64,000 nucleotides of DNA. Source: an uncultured Gammaproteobacteria bacterium (GTDB taxonomy: Bacteria > Pseudomonadota > Gammaproteobacteria > Eutrophobiales > Eutrophobiaceae). The stretch's first letter is position 1. Each line of letters starts with the position of its first letter. Location: assembly GCA_943788005.1 (NCBI GenBank), contig CALSOP010000008.1, positions 129,463-193,462 on the forward strand, read 5' to 3'. The notes under the pieces were generated by a model. That model saw nothing but the letters and a program-made list of their open reading frames with translations, had not been told where the DNA came from and did not search any database. The position numbers were made by a program, and so were the translations under genes. Positions 29,507-29,677 of the stretch are shown one piece after another.

Positions 29507-29677
29507 CTAAAAATCGATGCAGCGCCCTTTTTTCTCCCAGTCACCGTATCGTGTAGGTTCAGGACCCTTTGGACCGCCTATTTCTATTAGCTTTGCTTTA
29601 GGCTTGGTTTTTTCAGGCTGGAGGGAAGTATTAATATCCTTGTGCCCTTTATTATCTAAATTTTTACTATTATCCAT
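29507..29677 (-). CDS. DUF1674 / SDHAF4-like small protein (56 aa), missing from the ORF track
   Basis: Minus-strand translation: [56 protein letters not shown]. The C-terminal [23 protein letters not shown] is the DUF1674 signature. It is on the same strand as sdhC and 90 nt upstream of it. Confidence 0.7.

Follow-up and report, generated by a model that had tools for sequence, protein, structure and literature searches.

The minus-strand open reading frame 29507..29677 is a real coding gene, and its 56-residue product appears, on sequence comparison, to be a bacterial orthologue of the mitochondrial SDH assembly factor SDHAF4, known as SDHAF4 in human and Arabidopsis, Sdh8 in yeast and Sirup in Drosophila. 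It lies in the window analysed here, a stretch of 64,000 nucleotides (contig CALSOP010000008.1) from an 85%-complete assembly in 8 contigs of an uncultured marine gammaproteobacterium (GCA_943788005.1). We consider it likely that this orthologue, encoded at the head of an sdh cluster, serves as a chaperone of SdhA that caps the active site before SdhB docks. The gene and its surroundings comprise the following features, each given with the evidence for its assignment.

29507..29677, minus strand: DUF1674/SDHAF4-like gene, 56 aa (PF07896, PDB matches, codon-position variation)
29418..29506, minus strand: DUF1674-sdhC spacer, 89 nt, from the DUF1674 stop to the sdhC start
29452..29473, minus strand: 6-bp hairpin GGCUUG...CAGGUC in this spacer (RNAalifold, compensatory changes)
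29034..29417, minus strand: sdhC (PF01127, E = 2.5e-31)
28657..29037, minus strand: sdhD (PF01127, E = 3.8e-25)
26863..28650, minus strand: sdhA, mitochondrial type (PDB chain scores, tree)
26053..26835, minus strand: sdhB (Fer2_3 and Fer4 domains)
25803..26051, minus strand: sdhE (SDHAF2 family), 82 aa, compact E. coli YgfY type (PF03937, E = 3.9e-25; NF008130)
24777..25793, minus strand: ygfZ, CAF17-like Fe-S insertion factor (TIGR03317, 100.6 bits)
29678..29821, no strand assigned: divergent intergenic region with genus-conserved blocks (upstream regions of 17 same-genus members aligned with MAFFT)
29743-29748, minus strand: TAGAAT, a -10-like hexamer (genus conservation)
29722-29735, minus strand: motif TTGCAATGCAGCAT (genus conservation)
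29822..30292, plus strand: CptA/YgfX-like membrane-protein ORF, 156 aa, divergent from the sdh cluster (sub-threshold match to PF07254, 24.5 bits with a cut-off of 27.3; E = 3.2e-5)
30282-31136, minus strand: squalene/phytoene synthase family protein, 284 aa (PF00494, E = 1.4e-17)

The gene is present in the six-frame ORF list and starts with an ATG, the single possible start codon within its open stretch. Its translation agrees with the 56-residue minus-strand protein described in the initial annotation, including the C-terminus, which reads ...CIDF* with the stop directly after Phe. The same DF* ending was found in 129 of 130 loci, in a search whose pattern itself demanded DF*. The initial annotation had placed the protein in the DUF1674/SDHAF4 family and proposed a PF07896 profile search as a check; this search returned a significant match (60.7 bits against a gathering cut-off of 23.5 bits, E = 1.8e-16, profile positions 24-50 of 50), and the gene was the only match when all six frames of the 2.4-Mb genome were searched. 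No NCBIfam model matched the protein. Among PDB sequences, phmmer matched it to human SDHAF4 (8DYD_C/8DYE, E = 3.3e-11), with which it shares 22 of the 25 C-terminal residues (32-56), and to R. sphaeroides RhR2 (2K5K, an NMR structure of a DUF1674 protein, E = 2.7e-8), further supporting the family assignment. The nearest public relatives are 66-91% identical and are already called as genes, several of them under the name "DUF1674 domain-containing protein" in metagenome-assembled genomes (MAGs) labelled Legionellales or Gammaproteobacteria.

The earlier reading had also depended on conservation of the frame in related genomes. In a set of 40 relatives the gene is kept in 20 of the 22 same-genus and 22 of the 24 same-family genomes, and the variation that it has accumulated is mostly synonymous. 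Across the last 26 codons in 17 same-genus genomes, variable sites number 2, 3 and 25 at codon positions 1, 2 and 3, respectively, and pairwise codon differences amount to 1629 synonymous versus 149 non-synonymous. This is the pattern expected of a minus-strand frame that is translated, and it points to strong selection at the protein level. The C-terminal half of the protein is invariant, while the N-terminal half is variable and rich in Lys, Asn and Asp; the N-terminal 30 residues, in which Gln is also frequent, differ among relatives in both sequence and length.

The SdhA encoded downstream resembles the mitochondrial protein: mitochondrial SDHA chains match it with 843-909 bits, and E. coli SdhA with 678 bits. 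Its alignment with human SDHA, covering 415 residues, shows 70% identity. In human crystal structures the C-terminus of SDHAF4 lies along SDHA, where Asp107 engages His407 and Arg451 in the manner of a dicarboxylate, with the terminal Phe108 closing off the substrate site; the strictly conserved C-terminal Asp-Phe is required, its free carboxylate contacts Arg451, and mutating these residues abolishes function (PMC10784507). We took the contact residues from the tables in the supplement of that study (PMC10784507), and the human SDHA reference sequence was verified before use at 31 residue positions printed in these tables. The human SDHAF4 contacts E84, E92, R95, Y96, D98, R101, K102, R104, D107 and F108 correspond in the window protein to E32, E40, R43, Y44, D46, K49, K50, R52, D55 and F56, so that nine of ten side chains are identical and the tenth (R101 to K49) is a conservative change. 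On the other side of the interface, 14 of 16 human SDHA contact residues are identical in the window SdhA, and the two changes, T386 to S and A454 to S (the latter a backbone contact), are both conservative. It should be noted that E. coli-type SdhA also retains most of the positions contacting SDHAF4, and this comparison therefore demonstrates compatibility rather than specificity. The contacting SDHA residues do not separate genomes that carry DUF1674 from those that do not, except at position 386, which is Ser or Thr in the mitochondrial type and hydrophobic in the E. coli type.

Several further features are shared with human SDHAF4: the same Pfam family, the terminal Asp-Phe, the SDHA-contacting series Glu, Glu, Arg, Tyr, Asp, Lys, Arg, a variable, low-complexity N-terminal part, and the presence of an SDHAF2-family factor (SdhE) in the same organism. 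The window protein differs from its human counterpart in its length (56 versus 108 aa), in having no mitochondrial presequence and in being encoded inside an sdh operon; in family and size it is like RhR2 (2K5K) and the NCBI DUF1674 entries. From homology and gene neighbourhood we infer a role for the DUF1674 protein in flavoprotein maturation, as had been suggested initially. Members of the DUF1674/SDHAF4 family are disordered when free. We propose that SdhA would first be covalently flavinylated with the assistance of SdhE, and that the presumably largely disordered DUF1674 peptide would then bind free SdhA, its conserved C-terminal stretch running along the flavoprotein and its terminal Asp55-Phe56-COOH entering the dicarboxylate site (His357 and Arg402 of the window SdhA). 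There, Asp55-Phe56 would mimic the substrate and shield FAD from solvent and oxygen, and the capped SdhA would stay competent for assembly until SdhB takes the place of the peptide. SdhE itself (the SDHAF2/Sdh5 family, PF03937), whose gene lies in the same cluster, is likewise small and dedicated to the assembly of SdhA, but its fold and family are unrelated and it acts earlier, in covalent FAD attachment.

The best-documented activity of human SDHAF4 is the displacement of SDHAF2. The window SdhE, unlike the human factor, is of the compact bacterial type: it matches E. coli YgfY (PDB 1X6I) at E = 1.5e-15 versus 7e-4 for yeast Sdh5, and its 82 residues do not include the long termini that stabilise the human SDHA-SDHAF2 complex. 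Bacterial SdhA-SdhE complexes dissociate readily, while the human complex is stable (PMC10238741). An SdhE-displacing activity may thus be unnecessary here, and we rank active-site capping and hand-over to SdhB above forced release of SdhE.

A protein that plugs the active site could also regulate SdhA or inhibit it reversibly, keeping a portion of the flavoprotein, free or in the complex, inactive so as to limit, for example, reactive oxygen species or fumarate reduction. Such a function would fit the human complex, in which the dicarboxylate-mimicking C-terminal Asp blocks the substrate site (PMC10784507), as well as the conservation of the contact residues in the window proteins and the compact SdhE, with which a displacing activity would not be needed. 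However, loss of the factor in yeast, fly and plant lowers SDH activity and assembly (studies cited in PMC10238741), the opposite of what is expected from loss of an inhibitor, and a position at the head of the operon suits production together with the SDH structural genes for assembly. We therefore regard an inhibitory role as unlikely and favour the assembly chaperone.

The initial annotation had called for a survey of DUF1674 upstream of sdhC. Among 400 gammaproteobacterial genomes, an even sample of the class spanning about 215 families in which related genomes are not independent, 88 carry a DUF1674 gene. The order DUF1674-sdhC-sdhD-sdhA on one strand is found in all 20 relatives and in all 29 loci of other gammaproteobacterial families (49/49). 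In nearly all named gammaproteobacterial loci the gene is directly upstream of, and co-oriented with, sdhC, a layout present in named genomes of Thiotrichaceae, Legionellales, Methylomonas, Competibacteraceae, Steroidobacteraceae, Lysobacterales, Nevskiales, Salinisphaerales and Alkalilimnicola. Departures from it are few: an insert of roughly 1 kb lies between DUF1674 and sdhC in four loci (L083, L091, L100 and L112), and in two loci DUF1674 is followed directly by sdhE rather than sdhC (L084, 3001-3402, and L124, 3001-3450), both from gammaproteobacterial MAGs, one of them labelled Lysobacterales. In contrast to these gammaproteobacterial members, which head the sdh operon, the same scan found no sdh gene within 3 kb of DUF1674 in about 20 alphaproteobacterial loci, so that among the loci sampled linkage to the sdh operon is peculiar to gammaproteobacteria.

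To relate this distribution to the type of SDH, the window SdhA was searched in the same 400 genomes and the results were tallied with DUF1674 by hand. The best matches form two groups, one with 62-92% identity (E = 1e-243 or lower), which is the mitochondrial type, and the other with 59% identity or less (E of about 1e-190 to 1e-223). Eighty-three of the 88 DUF1674 carriers have an SdhA with at least 62% identity, and in the remaining five (G096, G111, G203, G210 and G342) a mitochondrial-type sdhA beside DUF1674 is cut by the end of the contig. Thus, the gene adjoins a mitochondrial-type SdhA in all 88 carriers, none of which has the E. coli type alone, and it is found in none of the roughly 270 sampled genomes having only the E. 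coli-type enzyme. The converse does not hold, as 37 of the 400 genomes have a mitochondrial-type SDH without DUF1674, indicating that some lineages can do without the factor. When the DNA of 10 mitochondrial-type genomes without an HMM match was read, no degenerate DUF1674 ORF was found upstream of sdhC. In a maximum-likelihood tree of SdhA the two types are parted by a branch with 100/100 support, human SDHA falls with the sequences from DUF1674 carriers, and the sequences from genomes lacking DUF1674 are scattered within the mitochondrial-type clade in a manner that requires at least four changes. This scatter suggests that the gene was lost repeatedly within the mitochondrial-type lineage.

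Four of the loci with the DUF1674-sdhCDAB layout (L059, L067, L082 and L103) belong to MAG records titled Klebsiella pneumoniae or Enterobacteriaceae. Their SdhA sequences cluster with environmental MAGs labelled Legionellales or Gammaproteobacteria, in the mitochondrial-type clade, and from this placement the taxonomic labels of these records look wrong.

SdhE shows a different distribution. It is present in 365 of 401 sampled gammaproteobacterial genomes regardless of the type of SDH, whereas DUF1674 is confined to the mitochondrial-type lineage, and the two factors coexist in 87 of the 88 DUF1674 carriers. Among carriers for which the position of SdhE was listed, 29 have it after sdhB on the same contig, some 3.5-4 kb downstream, and 7 have it elsewhere. 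We tentatively suggest that the SDHAF4-type factor of gammaproteobacteria, encoded in the operon, is a specific partner of mitochondrial-type SDH that was lost several times, and that, since the compact SdhE beside it should come off SdhA without help, its ancestral task was capping SdhA and handing it to SdhB rather than displacing SDHAF2; we hold this to be possible, though somewhat short of probable. This suggestion concerns the family as a whole and not the window in particular. If it is true, culturable carriers would provide a simple bacterial model of a step that has so far been studied only in mitochondria.

On the minus strand of the window the genes are ordered DUF1674-sdhCDAB-sdhE-ygfZ, and the arrangement suggests that DUF1674 is the first cistron and is co-transcribed with the rest of the unit. 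This link to sdhC had been put forward in the initial annotation, and it stands on the constant position of the gene in the 49 loci, on the scan of the coding strand, which found no terminator-like site between DUF1674 and sdhC, and on conserved promoter-like elements upstream; the spacer, which ends before the sdhC ATG at 29417, needs correction from 90 to 89 nt. Spacers are 75-89 nt long in same-genus relatives. The spacer is closed by a Shine-Dalgarno block of sdhC, TAGAGGATATCAATTATG, that is nearly invariant in the genus, with GAGGA located 8-9 nt before the ATG (29418-29435, minus strand) and equally well kept. In most of the 17 genus sequences no recognisable Shine-Dalgarno precedes the ATG of DUF1674 (29678-29700, minus strand), and this difference suggests that the assembly factor and the SDH structural genes are translated with differing efficiencies.

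Upstream of the gene, the segment 29722-29780 (minus strand) contains inverted hexamers, ATTCTA...TAGAAT, that flank an A/T-rich core and are followed by TTGCAATGCAGCAT, all of which are conserved in the genus. A consensus promoter scan of the minus strand, the DUF1674-sdhC spacer included, gave no full sigma-70 match. Judging from the conserved blocks, the intergenic region 29678..29821 is probably a promoter/operator for both the sdh cluster and the divergent cptA-like gene.

The spacer between DUF1674 and sdhC contains a hairpin of 6 pairs, 3 of which have changed on both sides according to RNAalifold. In the alignment 89% of cells are paired; sliding the partners lowers this to 18-42%, and 1 of 500 shuffles attained the covariation score. 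The hairpin has no U-tract and is therefore not an intrinsic terminator; we speculate that it could affect processing or stability, or be the site of a regulator. A small first cistron that has no Shine-Dalgarno of its own and is followed by a conserved 6-bp hairpin before sdhC could also be read as a leader peptide or uORF, whose translation, and not its product, controls sdhCDAB, perhaps together with the hairpin. We reject this reading as very unlikely, because conservation of the protein sequence extends from bacteria to humans, its variation is nearly all synonymous, and alphaproteobacteria encode the same protein away from sdh; in addition, the hairpin has no U-tract, and a leader peptide would not be expected to match a protein crystallised bound to SDHA. 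The conserved product is better accounted for by the assembly role.

The initial annotation had remarked that the gene is missing from the ORF track, which is explained by the track's floor of 60 aa, and that the ORF at 29517..29705 on the plus strand was listed instead. The latter, which is in the six-frame list, was correctly described as an antisense shadow, as its length is inconstant in relatives and substitutions follow the minus-strand frame. That the minus-strand ORF should be a chance open frame, and the real feature the slightly longer plus-strand ORF of 62 aa (29517-29705) or a non-coding element, is hardly credible, since the PF07896 match (E = 1.8e-16) lies solely in the minus-strand frame, third-position variation tracks that frame and the maximum open length on the antisense strand varies between 42 and 94 codons across relatives, which together rule out the antisense ORF as a real gene. 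A 60-aa cut-off can thus conceal a conserved respiratory assembly factor and list its antisense shadow in its place.

Gammaproteobacterial homologues of SDHAF4 have already been mentioned (PMC10784507, PMC10238741); the family and its bacterial members are known, and the gene itself is expected. The cautious remark that DUF1674 is little described beside sdhE in a gammaproteobacterial sdh operon was accordingly overstated, given the published homologues and the presence of SdhE in nearly every carrier; it holds for experiments, but not for occurrence or annotation. Our literature search found no experimental study of a bacterial DUF1674 protein and no description of its operon linkage. What the survey adds is that the factor heads the sdh operon throughout gammaproteobacterial carriers while being unlinked to sdh in Alphaproteobacteria, that it occurs beside the mitochondrial-type enzyme only, and that SdhE nearly always coexists with it. 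This pattern of gene content supports the view that SdhA matures by a conserved route with two factors, which would predate mitochondria, and it points to culturable bacteria in which the function of SDHAF4 could be tested genetically.

The surroundings of the cluster offer a few further observations. On the ygfZ side, an alpha/beta-hydrolase ORF (23786-24475, minus strand) matches its Pfam profile only from position 37 onward. On the other side, the CptA/YgfX-like ORF is conserved in place among genus members and also in several further families of the Gammaproteobacteria. An antisense ORF of 99 aa (30007-30306, minus strand) overlaps it, with matches that are lost in distant relatives; as the two frames share third codon positions, codon periodicity cannot tell them apart. 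In E. coli, ygfX adjoins sdhE, and a YgfX-like ORF next to sdhCDAB-sdhE-ygfZ is a further link between YgfX and SDH assembly. The 3' end of the cptA-like gene overlaps by 11 nt that of the squalene/phytoene synthase-family gene. The latter is also a neighbour of DUF1674-sdhCDAB in many families of the Gammaproteobacteria. NDUFAF6, an assembly factor of mitochondrial complex I, is a member of the same PF00494 family, and a role of the 30282-31136 product in respiratory assembly is worth testing.
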